64,000 bases of DNA from Gemmatimonadales bacterium (GCA_035703525.1 DASSYA010000005.1:82532-146531), one strand, 5' to 3'. Counted from the stretch's first letter, positions 5,940 through 35,698 are shown. Notes: generated by a model not told the origin, from the letters alone. Program-made: numbers and translations.

Positions 5940-7670
5940 CTACTCAAGGGACTTCAACACCGCCACCGCCGCCTTCCGCACCCGCGCCTGCCCGGCCGCC
6001 ACCTCTGCCGTCAAGTCGAGGTGCGGCAGCGTCATCTCCGGGATCGCCGCGATCGCACCGATGTAGTAGTCGCGCCAGGCAGCAATGATGGTCTGCTGCA
6101 ACGCCGCCGAGTCGGCGGCTGCCGCGATTGCCGCCCGCGAGAGTGCTCCCTCCGCGGCAAGCCGCCGCTCGGCGATCCCCGCCATCTCGATGATCGCAGC
6201 ACGAGCATACGTCGGCTCGTTGCCAGCCGTCAGGATCAGCGAGCTCGCCAGTGCACAATTCCCCACGTGCTGCAGCTCGGCGGCGCTCACCATGTCGATT
6301 CGATCGAGATCGACGTGATAGTACTGGTCGGTGAAGTGCCACATCAGCAGTCCCGGAATCCCGGCGGAGAGGAACGGGGAGTGGTCGCTCCCCCCCTCGT
6401 AGGGGTTCGCCTTGACGACCCAGCTGCCGCCGGTGGCGAGTGACTGATCGACACACCGCTGCTTGACGAAGTCGTTGAAGTAGTGCGGCCAGATGTCCTT
6501 GGCCGTCATCCGTTGGCCTTCGCCCCACTCGGTGTGCTGGTCCTCACCACGCACCCAGATCTTCGATGGATCGGGCATCTTCTCGATCAGGAAGGTGCCG
6601 CCGGTGAGCGCCGTGTTCTCGCCCACCATGTCGAGCGACATTCCCCACTTGATTCCGCGCGCCCGCACCGAATCCTCCGAGATGTAGCGCCGCGTCTGGG
6701 TGATCTCGACGCCCCAGAGCATCGTGATGGTGCGCCCCGGATCGATCTCCCCGGCTCGAAGCATCACGGCCGCCGTCCGCGCCATCTCGGCGAGCAGGCC
6801 GACACCGGTCGCGTTGTCATTGGCGCCCGGCTCCTGCACATGGGCCGAATAGACGAACCGCTCCTCCGGCGCGATCGACCCGCGGATCTCCGCCACGACG
6901 GTCCGCTCCGGCCGCTCCTCGAAGACCGACTGCACGTCGACGTGGGCACGCACCGGCCCCTTCGCCATCGCGGCCAGGAGATGTTCCTTCGACTCGAGCG
7001 AGAGGAAGATCGTCCAGATCCTGTTCGTGCTGTCGAACGCCATCGACCGGAAATTGATCGCGGTGCGATTCTTCGACTGCTGGTTGTAGGCCGGCAGCGT
7101 CTGCGCCTGCAGGATACCGATCGCGCCCTCGGGGATGGCGGTGCGGCCACGGCGCGCACCCGGTGCCGGCGCATTGATGAACACGATCTTGCCGCGCACC
7201 TCCGGACTGCCCTCAGGGACGATCTCGGCGGTGACACCGCCCGTCGGGGTGGGCCACGAGTTCGACGCCAGCATGTTGTGGTTGGTCGACCACTGCTGGA
7301 GCGGGGTCGACTCGCCCTCGAGTGTGATCGAGGCATCGAGTGGCGACCAGGCCAGCCCGCGGAGCGGACGGGACTCGATGCGGTACGTCAATCGGTCGGA
7401 GGGCTTGGCGCGATCCTCGCGCACGTAGCCGGCCGCTTCGAGGAGCCCGGCCACCGTGTCGATTCCCGCATCGAAGCCGCGGCTCCCCGGGTCGCGGTAG
7501 AACCGCTGGACGTAGTCGACGGTCGTGAACGCCCGGTCACCCGAGAGGGTCTTCCTGATCGGTTCCGTGATCGGGGCGAACGCCGGGTTGGCTCGGACCG
7601 GGCTGGCCTGCTGGGCACAGGCGAGGGTCGGGATGAACGACAGGGCGACGAGCAGGCGGAGCAGGGACAC
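5940..7670 (-). CDS. Secreted M28-family metallopeptidase (aminopeptidase-like)
   Basis: N-terminal signal peptide (MSLLRLLVALSFIPTLACAQQ), M28 metal-ligand motifs 'HVQEPGANDNATGVGLLAEMAR' and 'EGGSDHSPFLSAGIPGL'. Confidence 0.85.
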   Translation of the reverse strand: MSLLRLLVALSFIPTLACAQQASPVRANPAFAPITEPIRKTLSGDRAFTTVDYVQRFYRDPGSRGFDAGIDTVAGLLEAAGYVREDRAKPSDRLTYRIESRPLRGLAWSPLDASITLEGESTPLQQWSTNHNMLASNSWPTPTGGVTAEIVPEGSPEVRGKIVFINAPAPGARRGRTAIPEGAIGILQAQTLPAYNQQSKNRTAINFRSMAFDSTNRIWTIFLSLESKEHLLAAMAKGPVRAHVDVQSVFEERPERTVVAEIRGSIAPEERFVYSAHVQEPGANDNATGVGLLAEMARTAAVMLRAGEIDPGRTITMLWGVEITQTRRYISEDSVRARGIKWGMSLDMVGENTALTGGTFLIEKMPDPSKIWVRGEDQHTEWGEGQRMTAKDIWPHYFNDFVKQRCVDQSLATGGSWVVKANPYEGGSDHSPFLSAGIPGLLMWHFTDQYYHVDLDRIDMVSAAELQHVGNCALASSLILTAGNEPTYARAAIIEMAGIAERRLAAEGALSRAAIAAAADSAALQQTIIAAWRDYYIGAIAAIPEMTLPHLDLTAEVAAGQARVRKAAVAVLKSLE

Positions 7671-7815: not shown

Positions 7816-7820
7816 AGCTT

Positions 7821-8151
7821 GGTCTCTTTCGCAATCTGGTACCTCGCGGTAGACTGATTCAGACCCTGACAGGGGCCCTGCCGCCTCAGGTGCCCCGTTA
7901 TCGACCCAGGAGAGTCGTTATGCCCCCCCCCCGCTCAGCCATCAGCCGACGTCTCCACACTCCTCCTGGGCCTCCACGACCAACTCCTGGCGTTGACCCT
8001 CACCGAATCGCTCGCTCGGTCGTGTCGCGTGGTTGGTGTGGCCGCGTCCTGGAACGAATTCCACGACGCACTCGATGCTCATCACCCTTCGGTTGCACTG
8101 ATCGACATCCTCGTCGGTGCCGACCGTGTGATGCCCTATCTGGGAGCCATC
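7821..8151 (+). repeat. Direct repeat copy A (331 bp): regulator leader plus first ~230 nt of the regulator CDS
   Basis: Aligns base-for-base with 9518-9851, apart from the poly-C length (10 vs 13) and 6 substitutions that I counted by eye. Confidence 0.9.
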
Positions 8152-8301: not shown

Positions 8302-9456
8302 ATGATGATGCGATCGATGAGAACATTCGGAGCCAACATGGGCTGGGTCTGCGTCCTGCTTGCTGTCATGCCGTTAAGACTCGTGGCACAGGACCTTGAG
8401 ACGGTTCTGGACGGGAGCACCTCGATCATCAGCCGCTTCACGGCGATCGGAGTTGCGCAGTCCACGATACTGGTTCCCGATCAGGACGAGAATCGAGTGC
8501 TTCTGGTCAATAGTCGAGGAGGTGCGCACCTCTCATTTGGAAGGGAGGGGTCCGGGCCGGGTGAGTTCCGCCGGATCGGCCGGCTCGGCGCGTACGGCAC
8601 CGACGGATTCTGGGTCGAAGATCGAATGCAGATGCGACTCCACCTGATATCGCCAGATGCGAAGTCCCTGGGGGAGCGACCGATTCCGACGCGGATTGGG
8701 ACGCATGACGACAGATCAGGCGCCGACTTCATGAGCAATGCAGGGGTCCGTGCTGCCTACACCGACGGATTGATGCTCGTGGAGGTCTCCGCGCCCGGCG
8801 AGCGTGCGTTCAGTGCCAATTGGACTGGCCGATCGTCGTCCGGCGACGACGTTGCTTTCGCTCTCGTGGATTCGAGTGGGACTGTACGAAGGATCGCCGG
8901 TTGGCGTCGCGGGGTCCGCCGTTGTTTCGCATCGCCCACTGGAGTCACGATGCGAACGCCGCTCTGCGCTGATCCAATTGTCGAGGTGAGCCCGTCTGGC
9001 GACAGGGTCCTGTTCATCGAGGGCGATGCTGATGCAGGCAAGGGACGATCACGCCAGTTTCAGGTCGTTATAGTCGATCGAAAGGGAAGCCCGGTCAGGA
9101 CGAGCACGATTTCCTACGCTCCGCTCCGGATCTCCGCGACGGTCCGCGACAGCATGGTCGAGGGAGTGGCGAAGGTGTTCCCGCCGGACATGGCAAAGGC
9201 GATTCGCGCAGCTCCCGTTCCGGGGTTCTTCTACCCAGTACGCACGGCGGTTGTTGCGGATGACGGTTCATTCGCACTGGAAGTCTGGGATGCAGACTTC
9301 GATCACCGATACCGGATCTTCGGTAGTGACGGAATCGAACGCCCTTCTGTCACGTTGCCGAGTAGCGATACGGTAATCGGTATGACTGGCGTGTTCTATT
9401 ACGTGCTCCGAACCGACACGGATGGGATCCAGACCCTCCTGCGCGGCCGGCGATAG
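8302..9456 (+). CDS. Secreted NHL-like / 6-bladed beta-propeller-type protein, paralog 1
   Basis: Signal peptide (GWVCVLLAVMPLRLVAQD). The 'FGREGSGPGEFRRIGRL' motif is typical of NHL/6-bladed propeller blades. Paralogous to 10624..11685 (shared GxGPGE blade motif and C-terminal 'YYVLRTDTDG' vs 'WYVMRTDKDG'). Confidence 0.7.
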   Translation: MMMRSMRTFGANMGWVCVLLAVMPLRLVAQDLETVLDGSTSIISRFTAIGVAQSTILVPDQDENRVLLVNSRGGAHLSFGREGSGPGEFRRIGRLGAYGTDGFWVEDRMQMRLHLISPDAKSLGERPIPTRIGTHDDRSGADFMSNAGVRAAYTDGLMLVEVSAPGERAFSANWTGRSSSGDDVAFALVDSSGTVRRIAGWRRGVRRCFASPTGVTMRTPLCADPIVEVSPSGDRVLFIEGDADAGKGRSRQFQVVIVDRKGSPVRTSTISYAPLRISATVRDSMVEGVAKVFPPDMAKAIRAAPVPGFFYPVRTAVVADDGSFALEVWDADFDHRYRIFGSDGIERPSVTLPSSDTVIGMTGVFYYVLRTDTDGIQTLLRGRR

Positions 9457-9517: not shown

Positions 9518-9851
9518 GGTCTCTTTCGCAATCTGGTACCTCGCGGTAGACTGATTCAGACCCTGACAGGGGCCCTGCCGCCTCAGGTGCCCCGTTATCG
9601 ACCCAGGAGAGTCGTTATGCCCCCCCCCCCCCGCTCAGCCATCAGCCGGCGTCTCCACACTCCTCCTGGGCCTCCACGACCAACTCCTGGCGTCGACCCT
9701 CACCGAATCGCTCGCTCGGTCGTGTCGCGTGGTTGGTGTGGCCGCGTCCTGGAACGAATTCCACGACGCACTCGATGCTCATCACCCTTCGGTTGCACTG
9801 ATTGATATCCTTGTCGGTGCCGACCGTGTGATGCCCTATCTGGGAGCCATC
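9518..9851 (+). repeat. Direct repeat copy B (334 bp)
   Basis: See copy A. It covers the leader, SD, ATG, poly-C tract and N-terminal receiver codons of the full-length regulator. Confidence 0.9.
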
Positions 9852-10274
9852 GTGACCCAATACAGGTCGACCGCTTTCATCCTCTGCACCGCCGATCTCG
9901 ATGATCTCCTGGTGGAGCGGGCACTGGTGGCGGGCGTGGCCGGTGTGCTGGGACATGACTGCACCGCGGAGCAATTGCTCTCGGTGATCCAGTCAACTCT
10001 CCAGGGGAATGCGTGGCCCGCTGGTGTCGGCCGGCCCGCGCTGGGGCATGCCGGCCGTCAGCGCCCGCTCGTCGCCATCACGGTCAGGCAACGTCAGGTA
10101 TTGGAACTCCTCTGGCAGGGATTGACACACAAGGAGATCGCCGAATTCCTTGGCCGCGGGATCAAGACGGTTGAGGGGATCGTGGGCAAGCTCCGGAGGG
10201 CTCACGGCTTGAAGCGAGGCGAAGTCGCGCCGTGGGAGGTGATGAGGAGGGGACGTCCCTCGGGCGGCGATTAG
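9617..10274 (+). CDS. Orphan LuxR/FixJ-family response regulator (atypical receiver + GerE-type HTH); ATG separated from the receiver frame by a +1 offset in a 13-nt poly-C tract
   Basis: AGGAGA at 9605-9610, 6 nt before the ATG at 9617. Receiver frame: STLLLGLHDQLL...VALIDILVG...AFILCTAD...; HTH: 'LTHKEIAEFLGRGIKTVEGIVGKLR'. The span is 658 nt (3n+1). The ORF track only recovers 9729..10274 from an internal GTG that would lack beta-strand 1. Confidence 0.8.
9620..9632 (+). repeat. Poly-C tract (13 nt) immediately after the ATG at 9617
   Basis: Counted directly: atg + 13 C + gctcag. 12 or 15 C would fuse the ATG to the receiver frame as MPPPPAQPSAGVSTLLLGLHD... Confidence 0.9.
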
Positions 10275-10623: not shown

Positions 10624-11685
10624 ATGCCCTCGCGACGCCTGAGTGGTCCCTCGAGACTCAGCTTGCGCTCCCTGGTTGCATGGCTGGCCATTTGCTCCGT
10701 TCTGCCCTGCGCTCCGTCGCTCGCAGCCCAAACCGGGGCCCGCATGTATTTCGGAGAAAATGTGGAGTTCGGGTCGGTCCTCTTCGGAGCGGAGACGCCC
10801 AATCAGGGCCTCTGTGTGATCGATGGATCAGATCAAAAAATCCTTTGCTTCGATCGAGCGGGGAAGTTGCGGTTCTCCGTCGGCCGACGCGGCGAAGGGC
10901 CCGGCGAGTCGACCGGCTTGTACCGTCTGGCGGTCTCCCCAACCGGTCGGGTGTTCGGTCTCGATTTCGCCCGTCAAATGGTGAATGTCTACGACCCGGG
11001 TGGGAAATTCGAGCGCTCACTCCGCTTGCCGATCCCTTTCAGTCAGGTTCTCAGTTTTCTCGCGCCCACAGACTCGCTTCTGGTTCTAACCGCGACGGCC
11101 TTTGATGCCGGCCGGGCTTCGGATTTCGGTGTGCACACGTTCCGCGTGTCCGACTCCTTGGTCTATCTCACCTCGTTCGGCCCATTGCCAGAAACGAATG
11201 ATCGTCGGGTACTCTCGATGTTCGGCAGTGGGATAGCGACCCTGACGCCTCGTGGAACACTACTCTACTCACGGCGCTACCCGTATGACCTGTTCGAATT
11301 CAGTCTCGACGGGACACAGGTCCTCACGGTTCAGGGACCCGTCCATCTGACCACAAGCCTGGATGAGTTGATTGAAGTCAATCGATCTGCGACAAAGACC
11401 ACGTTCAGCTATGTCGGAGCAGAGAAGCCTGAACGCGTCGGTTCGGCCTACGATGGTGGCAACGGACGATGGTATGTGATGCGGACCGATAAGGATGGGC
11501 ACAAACTCTTCGATGTCTTCGACGCGCGAACGGGCCGGTGGCTTCCCAGTATCCCGTCCCCGATTCGTGATCCAGATCTCTCCCTTTTGGGAATGGACTT
11601 CAAGAACGGGTTCTATCTCGGCTCGACTCTCTGCGATGATGCGCCGTGTGTCCTCCGGGACCCGCTCAAGATCCGCGGTCCCTAA
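10624..11685 (+). CDS. Secreted NHL-like / 6-bladed beta-propeller-type protein, paralog 2
   Basis: ORF 10432..11685. The likely start is the ATG at 10624, giving signal peptide MPSRRLSGPSRLSLRSLVAWLAICSVLPCAPSLAAQ. Blade motif 'VGRRGEGPGESTGLYRLAVSPTGRVFGLD'. Confidence 0.65.
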   Translation: MPSRRLSGPSRLSLRSLVAWLAICSVLPCAPSLAAQTGARMYFGENVEFGSVLFGAETPNQGLCVIDGSDQKILCFDRAGKLRFSVGRRGEGPGESTGLYRLAVSPTGRVFGLDFARQMVNVYDPGGKFERSLRLPIPFSQVLSFLAPTDSLLVLTATAFDAGRASDFGVHTFRVSDSLVYLTSFGPLPETNDRRVLSMFGSGIATLTPRGTLLYSRRYPYDLFEFSLDGTQVLTVQGPVHLTTSLDELIEVNRSATKTTFSYVGAEKPERVGSAYDGGNGRWYVMRTDKDGHKLFDVFDARTGRWLPSIPSPIRDPDLSLLGMDFKNGFYLGSTLCDDAPCVLRDPLKIRGP

Positions 11686-11736
11686 CGCCGTGGTGGTGCA
11701 GTACCGCTCGACTCACCCGCAGTGAAGGAGAACTAC

Positions 11737-12174
11737 ATGTCCAGACTTCTGATCAGAATCGCAGCGACGTTGGCGCTGACGGTCGGTGGCGCCAACGCGA
11801 TCGGTGCGCAGGTACTGTCACCAGGTGTGGGAACTGGAGCTAGCGCCCAGGCACAAACGCCCAATGACTGCTTCTGGTTCTGTACCAACGTTCTTCATCC
11901 GATCGACGGGACCGTCATCGGACACCAATGCAACAACTATGGCTATGGCCACGTGGTACCGGAGCACGGCTTCTCCTGCATCGCGACCTCAGAATGGCGC
12001 ATCCTGGTGTCCGGGAATTTGTGTGACGGTCCGCTGGCAGTTCTCACCGCGGATGGAGTGCCGACCGTCCTTGCCAACGGGTGTTCACCGGGGAATGTGG
12101 CAGCCGCGTTCGCAACGGAAATGCCTTCTCACGGAGGGGTGATCGTAACCGCAAATAACTGGAGAGCAACATGA
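11737..12174 (+). CDS. Small secreted Cys-rich protein, paralog A (145 aa)
   Basis: AAGGAG at 11725-11730, 6 nt before the ATG at 11737. Signal peptide MSRLLIRIAATLALTVGGANAIGAQ. Six Cys including CFWFC. No family recognised. Confidence 0.6.
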   Translation: MSRLLIRIAATLALTVGGANAIGAQVLSPGVGTGASAQAQTPNDCFWFCTNVLHPIDGTVIGHQCNNYGYGHVVPEHGFSCIATSEWRILVSGNLCDGPLAVLTADGVPTVLANGCSPGNVAAAFATEMPSHGGVIVTANNWRAT

Positions 12175-12638
12175 TCCGTGTCATCATGCCACAACTGATC
12201 CTTGGGATCGTACTCGCTGCGGCTCCGGCCGCTGCTCAGTCGGTGCACCTCAGCTCCGGCTCCGGTGGAGCTACCGCGATGGCCCAGGTGCCACTGTGTG
12301 ACAAGTTCTGCGTGTGGCAGACCCACCCGAACACCGGAGACCCGATCGGCGTGGCATGCATCCAAGATGTGAATTCTCCTCCGAGCAATGAACAGCACGG
12401 GAGAGATTGTTCGACCTCCGGCTTCGACTGTTCCCTATTCCATCCCTGCCCGTTTGGAAGCGCGTTCGGCATTCTCCGCCCCGACCGCACGGTGCTGGCT
12501 TCTGGCACTGGTTGCAGCTGGACTCAATTCGTGGCGTTCTCCAATGAAAGGTCTGGTGTCGGTGGAACGATGCTTCCTCTACCAGGAGGCAGGCTTATCG
12601 TCGCATCTCCGCAACCTCCCGTCCTAGTCTCCGAGTAG
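12171..12638 (+). CDS. Small secreted Cys-rich protein, paralog B (155 aa)
   Basis: ATGA start/stop overlap with the preceding gene. Signal peptide ...LILGIVLAAAPAAAQS. It shares CxxxC...HPxxGxxIGxxC...HG..C...G.GCS spacing with paralog A. Confidence 0.6.
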   Translation: MIRVIMPQLILGIVLAAAPAAAQSVHLSSGSGGATAMAQVPLCDKFCVWQTHPNTGDPIGVACIQDVNSPPSNEQHGRDCSTSGFDCSLFHPCPFGSAFGILRPDRTVLASGTGCSWTQFVAFSNERSGVGGTMLPLPGGRLIVASPQPPVLVSE

Positions 12639-13085: not shown

Positions 13086-13130
13086 CTACACCCTCCCGAT
13101 CAACACCCCGTGCGTCCCGCGGTCGGGTTC
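13086..13130 (-). repeat. ppk 3' end = right-hand att-like direct repeat
   Basis: 40/45 identity to 7771-7815 (see that feature). Confidence 0.8.
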
Positions 13131-15227
13131 GCCCTGCTCCGGACGTCGCTGGTGGTAGCTGCCGTCGGGCAGCAGGTCCCACGCCTGGCGGTTGTCCTTG
13201 AGCATCAGCTCCAGCAACCGGCGCACCTCCGCCCGGTGACGCGGATCCTCGATCGGCACCGCCACCTCGACCCGACGCTCCAGGTTCCGCGGCATCCAGT
13301 CGGCCGACGAGATGTAGACCTCCTCCCGCCCACCGTTCCGGAACACCGCCGCACGTGAGTGTTCGAGGAACCGCCCCACGATCGAGATCACCCGGATGTT
13401 CTCGCTCACCCCCACGATCCCGGGCCTGAGGCAACAGATGCCCCGGATGATCAGGTCGACCTGCACCCCGGCCTGCGACGCCTCGTAGAGCGCATGAATC
13501 ACATCGCGATCCACCAGCGAATTCATCTTCGCCAGGATCCGACCCTGACGCCCGGCCCGCGCATGCTCGGTCTCTCGCCGGATCGCCGCCAGGACCTTCC
13601 GCTTGAGCCACCGTGGGGCCACGACCAGCTTCCGGAACTCCCCCGGGATCGCGAATCCCGTCAGCACATTGAACAGCCCCGACACGTCGGCCCCGATATC
13701 CTCATCGCAGGTCAGGAGCCCGAGGTCGGTATAGAGGCGTGCCGTCTTCGGGTTGTAGTTGCCGGTACCGACATGGACATAGCGCCGGATCGCGGTCCCC
13801 TCGCGCCGGACGATGAGGAGGATCTTCGCGTGCGTCTTGAGACCGGCATCGCCGTAGCTCACGTGCACACCGATCTCCTCGAAGCGCTTGGCCCACGAGA
13901 TGTTGTTCTCCTCGTCGAACCGCGCCTGCAACTCGATCAGCACCGCAACCTGCTTCCCCCGTTCGGCGGCATGCGCCAGCAAGCGCGCGATCTCGCCACC
14001 GGTCCGGTAGAGCGTGATCTTGATGGCCAGCACGTCAGGATCATCCGAGGCGACCGCGATCAATCGCTCGATCGAGGCGTCGAACGAATCGAACGGATGG
14101 TGCAGCAACAGGTCGCCCTCGCGGATCGCCTCGAAGATGTCACGGTGGTCGGCGAGCCGCTTCGGCACGCCCGGCACGAACGGCGGGTCCTTGAGCGCGG
14201 GCACGTCGAGCGCCGCAATCGCGTGGAGGGCGGTGGCATCGAGCAATCCCTCGACCTCGAAGATGTCGTCGCTGGTGAGTGCCAGACCCTCGCCGGCATG
14301 CGCCTCGTTGAACTCCTCGAGCAGCAGGTGCCGCATCGTGTCGGGCATCACCGGCTGCACCTCGATCCGCACCACCTCGCCGAACTTGCGGTTGCGCACC
14401 TCTTCCTGGATCAACTCCAGCAGGTCGTCGGCCTCGTCGTTGTCACCCTGACCGACCTCGAGATTGAGGTCGGTGTTGCGGGTGATCCGGAAGAAGTGGC
14501 TGCCCAGGATCGTGATCCCGGGGAAGAGCGCGTCGAGGTGCGCCTCGATCAGCAGCTCGAGCGGCAGGAACTGGTTGGCCGTGAGCAGCGGTACCCAGCG
14601 CGGCAGCAACTCGGGCACCTTGACGCGCGCGAACCGCGGCTCGCCCTGCTCGTCAAGCAGCGACACCGCGAGCGAGAGCGAGAGATTCGAGATATGCGGG
14701 AACGGGTGCGCCGGATCGACCGCGAGCGGCGTGAGCACCGGGTAGACATTCGCGAGGAAGTAGGCCGAGAGATGGGCGCGGTCGCGGTCGGGCAGGGCGG
14801 CCCAACTGTCGTGCAACACGATCCCGTGACGGGCGAGTGCCGGGACCAGGTCGAGCGTGAGGCATCGGCCGTGTTGCGCCACCATGCTCCGCGCCGTCTC
14901 GCGGATCGCGAGCAGTTGCTGGGCTGGCGGCATCGCATCGGCGACCTGCTCGCTGACGCGCGCAGCGACCTGCTCGCGGATGCCGGCCACGCGCACCTGG
15001 AAGAACTCGTCGAGGTTGCCCGAGAAGATGGCCAGGAACTTGATCCGTTCGAGGAGCGGGGTGCGCGGATCGAGCGCCTCGTGCAGCACGCGTCGATTGA
15101 ACTCCAGCCAGGACAACTCGCGGTTCTGGTAAAGTGCCGGATCGTGCAGATCGGGCGGTGTCGGTGCGGTTGCTGCCACCTCGTGCCGATCGCCGGGGCG
15201 TTCGGGCAACGATGTCGTCATCGCCAT
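13086..15227 (-). CDS. ppk: Polyphosphate kinase 1
   Basis: 713 aa. 'YQNRELSWLEFNRRVLHEA', 'RIKFLAIFSGNLDEFFQVRVAG' and C-terminal PLD-like domains ('THAKILLIVRRE', 'RFLEHSR') are characteristic of PPK1. Confidence 0.95.
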   Translation of the reverse strand: MAMTTSLPERPGDRHEVAATAPTPPDLHDPALYQNRELSWLEFNRRVLHEALDPRTPLLERIKFLAIFSGNLDEFFQVRVAGIREQVAARVSEQVADAMPPAQQLLAIRETARSMVAQHGRCLTLDLVPALARHGIVLHDSWAALPDRDRAHLSAYFLANVYPVLTPLAVDPAHPFPHISNLSLSLAVSLLDEQGEPRFARVKVPELLPRWVPLLTANQFLPLELLIEAHLDALFPGITILGSHFFRITRNTDLNLEVGQGDNDEADDLLELIQEEVRNRKFGEVVRIEVQPVMPDTMRHLLLEEFNEAHAGEGLALTSDDIFEVEGLLDATALHAIAALDVPALKDPPFVPGVPKRLADHRDIFEAIREGDLLLHHPFDSFDASIERLIAVASDDPDVLAIKITLYRTGGEIARLLAHAAERGKQVAVLIELQARFDEENNISWAKRFEEIGVHVSYGDAGLKTHAKILLIVRREGTAIRRYVHVGTGNYNPKTARLYTDLGLLTCDEDIGADVSGLFNVLTGFAIPGEFRKLVVAPRWLKRKVLAAIRRETEHARAGRQGRILAKMNSLVDRDVIHALYEASQAGVQVDLIIRGICCLRPGIVGVSENIRVISIVGRFLEHSRAAVFRNGGREEVYISSADWMPRNLERRVEVAVPIEDPRHRAEVRRLLELMLKDNRQAWDLLPDGSYHQRRPEQGEPDRGTHGVLIGRV

Positions 15228-20124: not shown

Positions 20125-21369
20125 CTACTCGGCTCCCAGGGCCACGATCGGGTCGAGCCTGGCCGCGCGGGCGGCGGGGTAGACGCCGAAGATGATCCCG
20201 GTGATGGCGCCGAGCACGAGGGCGATCCCGACCGACCAGCCGGTGACACGGGCGGGGAGCGGACTGAATGTGGCAACCAGCCAGGCGAGTCCCCAGCCGA
20301 CGGCGACGCCGAGGAGGCCGCCGAGAAACGAGAGGATCACGGTCTCGACGAGGAACTGTCGGCGAATGTCGCGGCGATTGGCGCCGAGTGCCTTCCGGAG
20401 TCCGATCTCGCGCGTCCGTTCGGAGACCGACATCAGCATGATGTTCATGATCACGATCCCGCCGACCACGATCCCGATGCAGACGACCGCCGGGATCACG
20501 GTGAAGAGCAGGGCGGTGAGCGAGGTCCAGAAGGCGATCAGTGCGTCGGCCTTGTCGACGGTGAAGTCGTTGTCCTGGCGGGGCCCGAGGCGGTGTGCCA
20601 GCCGCATCGCCTCCTCCGCCCGGCTCATGGCACCGTCGATCTCCTGGGGCGTGCGCATCTTGACCGAGACCACGGTGGCGCCGCGTCGCCCCCAGATCGA
20701 TTCGAACATGGGAAGCGGCAGTAGCACGAAGCCGTCAAAGGATTGACCGAGAGTCTTGCCCTTGGGGGCAACGACTCCAATGACCGTGAATTCGCGGCGC
20801 GCGATGCGCACCTTCTCGCCGATCGCGGACTCGGGTGTCCGGAAGAGCTTGTCGGCGACATCGAAGCCGACCACCGCGACCGGTCGGCGCCCCCGCATGT
20901 CGGCATCGCTGATCGGCACGCCGGCGAGCAGGGTGTAGTCCTGCACGATCAGGTAGGGGGGGGTGATCCCGAAGACGAGCACACTGCCGACCGTCTGGTT
21001 GCCCCGGACCACGTTGGCGGACGGGGTGGGCCAGCCCGACTGAAGGGCCACGGCCTCGGCATCGGGGAGCGCCGCGTCGACGTACGCGGCATCGCGGGCG
21101 GTGATGCGCGGGCGCTTGGCGAAGGCCCGGACCTGGTCGTCGGTCAGCAGGCCGACGGAGATCGGCGAGCGCCGGACCTGGAAGGCGTTGTTGCCGATGA
21201 TGGCCCCGGTGAGGTTCTCGCGGACGTAGGAGTTCATCCCCTGGATGACGGCGACCACGGCCACGAGAAACGCGACCGACACGATGATGCCGAGGAGAGT
21301 GAAGAAGCTGCGGAGCTTGGCCGAGGCGATGGTGGAGAGCGCCAGCCGCAGGGCTTCGGAGAGGGGCAT
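20125..21369 (-). CDS. ABC transporter permease, MacB/FtsX type (permease C; A-like paralog)
   Basis: Start at the ATG at 21369 (MPLSEALRLALSTIASAKLRSFFTLLG...); the upstream part of ORF 20125..21453 is translated hairpin repeat. The N-terminus aligns closely with permease A. Confidence 0.85.
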   Translation of the reverse strand: MPLSEALRLALSTIASAKLRSFFTLLGIIVSVAFLVAVVAVIQGMNSYVRENLTGAIIGNNAFQVRRSPISVGLLTDDQVRAFAKRPRITARDAAYVDAALPDAEAVALQSGWPTPSANVVRGNQTVGSVLVFGITPPYLIVQDYTLLAGVPISDADMRGRRPVAVVGFDVADKLFRTPESAIGEKVRIARREFTVIGVVAPKGKTLGQSFDGFVLLPLPMFESIWGRRGATVVSVKMRTPQEIDGAMSRAEEAMRLAHRLGPRQDNDFTVDKADALIAFWTSLTALLFTVIPAVVCIGIVVGGIVIMNIMLMSVSERTREIGLRKALGANRRDIRRQFLVETVILSFLGGLLGVAVGWGLAWLVATFSPLPARVTGWSVGIALVLGAITGIIFGVYPAARAARLDPIVALGAE

Positions 21370-35281: not shown

Positions 35282-35698
35282 TCAGCGTCCCTCATCCACG
35301 GTGAGTTCGAGCACCACATCCCGGGTGGCACCGGCGGGGTCTGTCCCACGCAGTGTGATCCGGTGCCGCGTTCGCGCCGCGCTGGTGTCCACGACCACCC
35401 GGATCTCGCTATCCTCGCGACTGAGGATCATCGGGGGGCGGAACACGAGGACCACGCCGGGCGGGGTGGTGGCCGAGAAGGTGATCGGGTCGTCGAAGCC
35501 CGGCTCTCGCGTCGCGAGGAGTGTCAGCGCCAGGACCTCGCCCTGGCTGATGCGCTGCACGCCGCCTTCGCGGAGTGCGAGCGTGAACCGTGGCACGGGT
35601 GGAGGCGGGGGGGGGATGAGCGATGCCACCGGGGGATTGGTGCACGCGAGGGTGAGCATGCCCACCGCGATCGCCAGCCGCCGCGTCGTGCTAGTCAT
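35282..35698 (-). CDS. Small lipoprotein with Pro-rich linker
   Basis: ATG at 35698 (MTSTTRRLAIAVGMLTLACTN: lipobox), then PPPPPPVP and a beta-rich domain. Overlaps the arfB stop by 8 nt. Confidence 0.5.
   Translation of the reverse strand: MTSTTRRLAIAVGMLTLACTNPPVASLIPPPPPPVPRFTLALREGGVQRISQGEVLALTLLATREPGFDDPITFSATTPPGVVLVFRPPMILSREDSEIRVVVDTSAARTRHRITLRGTDPAGATRDVVLELTVDEGR

Follow-up and report, generated by a model that had tools for sequence, protein, structure and literature searches.

The 64,000-nucleotide stretch of DNA from a Gemmatimonadales bacterium that we analysed (the window) carries, on its + strand, two small overlapping genes that encode members of one cysteine-rich protein family, here called A and B. 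Gene A (positions 11737-12174) runs from an ATG at 11737 to a TGA at 12172-12174 and encodes 145 amino acids; gene B (12171-12638) runs from an ATG at 12171 to a TAG at 12636-12638 and encodes 155. Both open reading frames were found where the initial annotation had placed them. They share the ATGA at 12171-12174, a start/stop overlap that points to the translational coupling proposed there. Each gene is preceded by its own putative Shine-Dalgarno site, AAGGAG 6 nt upstream of A (11725-11730) and GGAGAG 4 nt upstream of B (12161-12166), the latter inside the 3' end of A. On contig L001, which belongs to the same lineage as the window, AAGGAG also lies upstream of the A gene, and GGAGCG occupies the place of the B site.

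Both products carry a predicted Sec-type signal peptide. As read from the sequence, each N-terminus has a basic n-region, a hydrophobic h-region and an AxA-Q end (...ANAIGAQ in A and ...PAAAQ in B), in agreement with the earlier reading that both signal peptides end in AQ. In A, the predicted signal peptide (residues ~1-24) leads into a Gly/Ala/Gln linker up to residue 41, followed by the cysteine core (residues 45-116; 11869-12084) and a variable tail (117-145). B is built along the same lines, with a predicted signal peptide at residues ~1-22, a cysteine core at 43-115 (12297-12515) and a poorly conserved tail at 126-155.

The pair closes an island of low GC content, downstream of two genes for secreted β-propellers, which bears out its earlier description as the last genes of the island. 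Between ~7,800 and 12,900, GC content is 0.57-0.62, against 0.65-0.70 in the flanks, and GC3 of the island genes is 0.64-0.73, against 0.88 for the flanking genes on the - strand, ppk (13086-15227) and an M28 peptidase gene (5940-7670). This contrast points to a foreign origin or to very different codon usage. The nearer propeller gene (10624-11685, + strand) encodes a secreted, six-bladed NHL-repeat β-propeller of 353 amino acids, counted from the signal-peptide Met and assigned from Pfam DUF5128, NHL domains in the PDB and synteny. The farther one (8302-9456, + strand) encodes a more distant secreted paralog, recognised as an open reading frame and by Pfam. A gap of 51 nt separates the nearer propeller gene from A, and a promoter and terminator scan of the island predicted no terminator between the genes of the module. 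By this arrangement, A and B are the last two cistrons of an operon-like unit in the order NHL propeller, A, B. Transcript evidence consists of two short contigs, and one of them, from a metatranscriptome, spans 11694-11844; DNA from sludge, soil and wastewater, assembled independently, also carries the A and B genes. A search of the whole window against Rfam gave no match.

The initial annotation recognised no family for the two proteins, and the databases agree: A, B and the 11 family members have no match in Pfam, NCBIfam, PADLOC or PHROGs, and the family profile has none among PDB sequences (best E 0.22), so that no known-family match arose anywhere in the databases searched. The best Pfam match of A (E 0.27, 11.5 bits) is at chance level and is the sole one at E <= 1 across the 11 members; its best NCBIfam match has E 0.095, and B has no match of any kind in either collection. 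AlphaFold2 models of the single chains, built from 11-row alignments, are poor (pLDDT 59.1 for A and 49.8 for B). Both low-confidence models agree on a β-hairpin that holds Cys1-3, four further strands and a C-terminal helix, and Foldseek searches with them against the PDB gave best E-values of 1.7 and 0.54 at TM <= 0.29, nothing significant, although with models of this quality a fold shared with a solved structure may have escaped notice. The weak top Foldseek hits of B were propeller blades, a lead that we discarded when the family profile proved dissimilar to that of the neighbouring propeller (0.4 % probability). Our literature search on DUF5128, and on NHL repeats with cysteine-rich proteins in Gemmatimonadetes, returned nothing relevant. 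Orphan families are common in metagenomes. Judged by these searches, A and B are an undescribed protein family that no known family or described system matches.

What holds the family together is a scaffold of seven cysteines. They are found at residues 43, 47, 63, 80, 87, 93 and 115 of B; the corresponding positions of A are 45, 49, 65, 81, 88, 96 and 116, of which position 88 is not a cysteine in the window. The scaffold is conserved across 15 sequences with the fifth cysteine of A as the exception (Arg in the window, Gly in L001). Written as C-x3/4-C-x11-17-C-x6-26-C-x4-14-C-x2-9-C-x10-26-C after a signal peptide in a protein of 100-160 amino acids, the family pattern is matched by B and all homologs, and by the A of the window except at Arg88. 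Applied to 3,393 open reading frames, it picks up only 2 outside the family, and 0-3 in shuffled sequences. The shared scaffold that the initial annotation described is thus conserved, with variable loops and tails, and a loss of the pattern in homologs, which it had named as a ground for refutation, was not seen; the number of cysteines, on the other hand, is an odd seven and not six, and by this comparison seven is the ancestral pattern. Two further features accompany the scaffold: a Trp-Phe between Cys1 and Cys2 that is invariant in A-types, and an Ala/Gln-rich motif (..AQAQxP / ..AMAQVP) conserved just before Cys1. Fungal hydrophobins, secreted proteins of about 100 residues with an invariant cysteine pattern, free loops and often tandem paralogs, resemble A and B in small size, secretion, fixed cysteine spacing, variable loops and tandem arrangement. 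The two groups are not homologous, however, and A and B differ in being bacterial, in having seven rather than eight cysteines and in their obligate link to a propeller.

The fifth cysteine varies in nature. Codon 88 of A (11998-12000) reads CGC (Arg) in the window, TGC (Cys) in other populations and GGC (Gly) in L001. A natural C/T polymorphism at position 11998 switches between Arg88 and Cys88: the base is C in sequencing runs X1 and X4 and T in X2, X3 and P0001, the last of which is 99 % identical to the A of the window and carries Cys88. Because this cysteine comes and goes among near-identical strains, a structural internal disulfide is unlikely there. The variation among Arg, Cys and Gly marks Cys5 as the probable odd one out, either free or engaged in a dispensable bridge between subunits; the odd number could equally reflect a free thiol or a metal ligand.

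A and B had been called paralogs, and they prove to be so. BLASTP aligns them at E 8e-5, and profiles built from six A-type and seven B-type sequences align in hhalign at 98.9 % probability (E 2.6e-17, 111 columns) with every cysteine in register, well above chance; the three motif pairings that had been drawn between the two proteins are all correct on this alignment. Relative to the L001 orthologs, which keep the same overlap and share 85 % (A) and 76 % (B) nucleotide identity, A has a dN/dS of 0.13 over the whole gene and B one of 0.26; in the cysteine cores the ratio falls to 0.046 and 0.097, and it is higher in the tails and signal peptides. The cysteine cores are where purifying selection is focused. 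A reading of A and B as spurious open reading frames is ruled out by these ratios together with the conservation. In a neighbour-joining tree, A-types and B-types separate (bootstrap 0.855) into clades with similar internal branching, which suggests an old duplication followed by joint inheritance. The pair of locus L014 groups by itself outside both clades, as could result from an independent duplication or from long-branch attraction.

So far the family has been found in Gemmatimonadota only, and it is extremely rare. The combined A and B profile, run exhaustively with HMMER against 1.84 billion cluster representatives, returned only 9 members, all of 127-157 amino acids, at E-values from 2.6e-71 to 4.1e-5. 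Apart from near-identical copies, word-indexed searches of 5.8 billion proteins yielded a single B ortholog, 74 % identical. Protein A has no counterpart in 185,579 reference species genomes, and neither protein was found in viral contigs. A profile of the propeller recovered 12 loci in reference genomes, almost all from Gemmatimonadota or Longimicrobiales, and a very diverged A/B pair follows the propeller in only one of them, L014, a Gemmatimonadota metagenome-assembled genome. This pair was missed by HMMER, found by its cysteine spacing and confirmed by hhalign (93.6 % probability, E 2.1e-7). The window's own sequence is present in many metagenomes from sludge, wastewater, bioreactors and soil.

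Gene order ties the pair to its propeller. The upstream propeller scores 30.4 bits against Pfam DUF5128 (cutoff 22.9), and the profile of its clade matches NHL domains of the PDB at E 8.5e-25, with 6 matched stretches in Thin; it is an NHL-type propeller whose nearest solved relatives are the binding domains of TRIM proteins and Thin. The likeness to DUF5128/BF3164-type propellers (PF17170) and to the solved NHL domains of eukaryotic TRIM-NHL proteins belongs to this partner and not to A or B. Seven lineages have sequence context, namely the window together with L001-L004, L005, L007, L010, L012, L013 and L014. In 7 of 7, the B-type gene comes immediately after the A-type gene. Five of them (represented by the window, L001, L007, L010 and L013 among their loci) keep the 4-nt overlap, which is GTGA in L010 and sequence-confirmed as ATGA in the window and L001 only; elsewhere the two genes are separated by 17 nt (L005), ~65 nt (L012) or 40 nt (L014). 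In every case in which the upstream sequence is available, the gene 22-51 nt 5' of the pair encodes a secreted propeller from a single clade, and the order propeller-A-B recurs in L003, L005, L007, L010, L013 and L014. Among the matches listed, the surroundings of 80 NHL propellers that are more distant, 550 kb in all, contain no family member, which makes the link of A and B specific to one propeller clade. Regulator and propeller genes are the only neighbours of the pair in the island and related contigs, where we found no leader-cleaving transporter and no candidate immunity gene. On this synteny, propeller, A and B are a three-gene module, with the pair apparently inseparable from one clade of NHL propellers. 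In L013, an IS-type transposase fragment (2286-2672), called from weak HTH_21 and rve matches below the Pfam thresholds, lies ~390 nt 3' of the pair, consistent with the module being mobile.

Other propellers of the NHL/DUF5128-like type also have small neighbours. A crude filter on raw gene calls, for open reading frames of 74-170 amino acids with a signal peptide and at least 6 cysteines, brought up genes unrelated to A and B that share loci with such propellers; most directly adjoin one, and 18 of 19 hits lie on the propeller strand. They include L012:2274-2762, L019:11738-12034, L024:9426-9650, L026:303-800, L042:1568-2035, L045:5066-5323, L059:1225-1452, L071:6486-6719, L092:6121-6357, L097:2842-3339, and L099:1812-2303 and 5970-6218. 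The cysteine-rich neighbour in L026, which contains CHGYC...HPTGSRC, was considered as a distant relative of A and B and rejected at 0.5 % probability. Within the reach of such a filter, these hits suggest a general pairing of NHL/DUF5128-like propellers with variable, cysteine-rich secreted partners. Bacteroidota DUF5128 members are often found beside small secreted proteins. In L016, L017 and L023 (Longimicrobiales and Gemmatimonadota), at least three paralogous propeller genes of ~400-450 amino acids stand in tandem arrays, and their products have similar C-terminal ends. Secreted propellers seem to be a large and expanding gene family in the phylum.

Upon examination of the sequence between the two propeller genes of the island, we found a gene for a LuxR-type response regulator (9617-10274, + strand; assigned from Pfam, its sequence and comparison with L005) that begins with a homopolymer. 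Its ATG at 9617 is followed by a tract of 13 C (9620-9632) that breaks the reading frame; 12 or 15 C restore it, and reading with 12 C recovers a nearly complete receiver domain. The L005 regulator, at 30 % identity and in the same gene order, has an in-frame 12-C tract at its start. The tract is 13 C long in the window and 22 C in L002; it has 12 C in L005 and 10 C in a duplicated copy, and at this site the short-read assemblies of three runs either differ or break off. This spread of lengths and the assembly breaks fit an ON/OFF switch by slipped-strand mispairing. In the assembled contigs, the gene has the marks of a contingency gene, namely a homopolymer in its 5' coding region, a length that varies between strains and lengths that switch the frame, and from these sequences it looks like a conserved slipped-strand switch. 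The regulator precedes the propeller in two lineages only, that of the window (and L002) and L005; L014 has a second propeller in its place.

The region of the regulator is also duplicated. A direct repeat of ~330 bp (7820-8150 and 9520-9850) comprises its upstream region and 5' part, each copy with a poly-C tract of its own, that of the first being the 10 C at 7923-7932. The copies flank the farther propeller gene (8302-9456), which is missing from the related and otherwise near-identical contig L002, and in contigs of runs X1-X3 the left flank is joined directly to the regulator copy.

How might these genes work together? We tentatively favour, at a little under an even chance, a reading in which A and B form a 1:1 complex, each with three internal disulfides plus an odd cysteine, and act with the propeller as an extracytoplasmic binding factor under the control of a phase-variable regulator. 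Once exported, A and B would each fold as a small β-rich domain held by three internal disulfides, leaving Cys5 as the odd cysteine. Coupled translation would supply equal amounts of the two proteins for the 1:1 complex, which may be bridged through the odd cysteines, a bridge that would not be essential. Together with the co-encoded secreted NHL propeller, a presumed protein-binding scaffold, this complex would make up a periplasmic or extracellular binding factor. The module would be an accessory, horizontally acquired trait. In two lineages or more, the LuxR-type regulator probably turns its expression on and off, as slippage in the regulator's 5' poly-C tract breaks and restores the reading frame. 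Its most likely role would be in interactions at the cell surface or outside the cell, such as aggregation, adhesion or antagonism, rather than in core metabolism. The initial annotation had put forward a two-subunit extracellular factor that might be a toxin, a bacteriocin-like protein, an adhesin or a ligand pair, and the two-subunit part of that idea gains support from the gene order conserved in seven lineages, the 4-nt overlap kept in five of them and the parallel divergence of the A and B clades.

The same gene order could be read differently, A and B being cysteine-rich substrates of the propeller, much like precursors of a modifying enzyme. The propeller would then be that enzyme, or a maturation factor, and the active molecules would be the products it releases or modifies. 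The tight propeller-A-B synteny is compatible with such a division of labour, the unrelated cysteine-rich open reading frames beside other propellers, 18 of 19 on the same strand, fit a conserved enzyme with variable substrates, and the Ala/Gln-rich motif before Cys1 could be a processing site. Yet the NHL domains of the type matched here are binding scaffolds and we found no catalytic motif in the propeller; A and B already have ordinary signal peptides, and the module has no further conserved gene for a maturase, a protease or a transporter. We regard this reading as improbable.

About equally improbable, in our estimate, is that A and B together are a binary secreted toxin or a large bacteriocin that damages competitors, with the propeller as carrier, receptor-binding part or protection factor. 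Two co-translated secreted paralogs with fast-evolving tails, an accessory, low-GC, patchy and IS-linked distribution and an apparently phase-variable regulator next door are all what such a system might look like. Class IIb bacteriocins, for example, are encoded by two adjacent small genes whose exported products are needed together, typically in equal amounts, and A and B resemble them in being two adjacent small genes with exported products. Here the resemblance stops. A and B are 3-4 times larger and cysteine-rich, and neither their size nor their seven-cysteine domain is like that of known two-peptide bacteriocins. They carry Sec signal peptides instead of double-glycine leaders, and the defining companions of class IIb systems, a dedicated ABC exporter with a peptidase domain and an immunity gene, are absent from the island and from the related contigs. 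PADLOC and PHROGs are blank for both proteins, and their cysteine cores are under strong purifying rather than diversifying selection.

The pair could also owe its adjacency to duplication history alone, A and B being non-interacting monomers that are redundant or specialised. Being homologous, each could bind the propeller separately, and the L014 pair groups together as it would after a separate duplication. Against this, no lineage has lost either type, their order never changes and in most lineages the stop codon of one gene overlaps the start codon of the next, and each type has a conserved signature of its own, whereas redundant copies would often be lost; we consider independent paralogs distinctly unlikely.

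A precedent for a propeller joined to a small partner exists in methylamine and aromatic amine dehydrogenases, in which a periplasmic β-propeller and a small (~100-130 amino acids), β-rich, multi-disulfide light chain form one complex. The likeness lies in a propeller gene beside a gene for a small cysteine-rich protein; the differences are that A and B have no sequence similarity to the light chain, and that there is one small protein with 12 cysteines there and two paralogs with seven here. A redox enzyme, with the propeller as large subunit and A and/or B as disulfide-knotted small subunit bearing a Cys- or Trp-derived cofactor or a metal, might make sense of this likeness, of the invariant Trp-Phe in A-types and of the conserved odd cysteine, but we hold it to be very improbable by this comparison: 11 of 11 members lack a match to any Pfam family, the amine dehydrogenase light chain included, RR occurs in only 2 of 11 N-termini and gives no consistent twin-arginine (Tat) signal, no cofactor-maturation genes lie nearby, so that none of the marks of a MauA-like light chain is found in A and B, the propeller is a six-bladed NHL type and not the seven-bladed quinoprotein partner, and Cys5 of A is dispensable in nature.

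Returning to the binding-factor reading, if it is correct, the locus encodes a protein family and a three-gene extracytoplasmic module described in no database. What is new would be the undescribed family and the gene arrangement, not a mechanism. A and B would then be a testable obligate heterodimer derived from ancient paralogs on a fixed seven-cysteine scaffold, and the module may offer a first way into the function of DUF5128/NHL propellers, whose families are large and uncharacterised. The Gemmatimonadota are a widespread and barely cultured phylum, and the lineage of the window is common in wastewater sludge; the apparent poly-C switch would exemplify control by a contingency locus in a bacterium that is environmental and not pathogenic. 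The module is a good experimental target on three counts: A and B are strictly paired, their scaffold has an odd cysteine, and they are tied specifically to one propeller clade that is uncharacterised. More speculatively, and in our view unlikely, the module may be the best-defined member of a wider, unrecognised bacterial class in which a secreted NHL/DUF5128-type propeller is combined with one or two small, secreted, fast-evolving cysteine-rich partners as receptor and ligand or as carrier and effector; in Gemmatimonadota it would be switched by a slipping poly-C tract in its own regulator, with A and B as an obligate heterodimer of a new disulfide-rich fold.

Homopolymers are enriched beyond the regulator. 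The window has 14 G/C tracts of at least 8 nt, against a mean of 5.3 under a first-order Markov model, and 5 of at least 10 nt, against 0.45 expected. The longer ones lie at 752, 7923, 9620, 30155 and 45314, and the others at 20956, 29764, 35607, 38538, 46832, 48343, 49191, 53427 and 62597. Such an excess may mark further phase-variable genes in this genome, the alternative being homopolymer errors in the assembly. Several of the tracts, for example those at 35607, 45314 and 53427, are located at or just before start codons.
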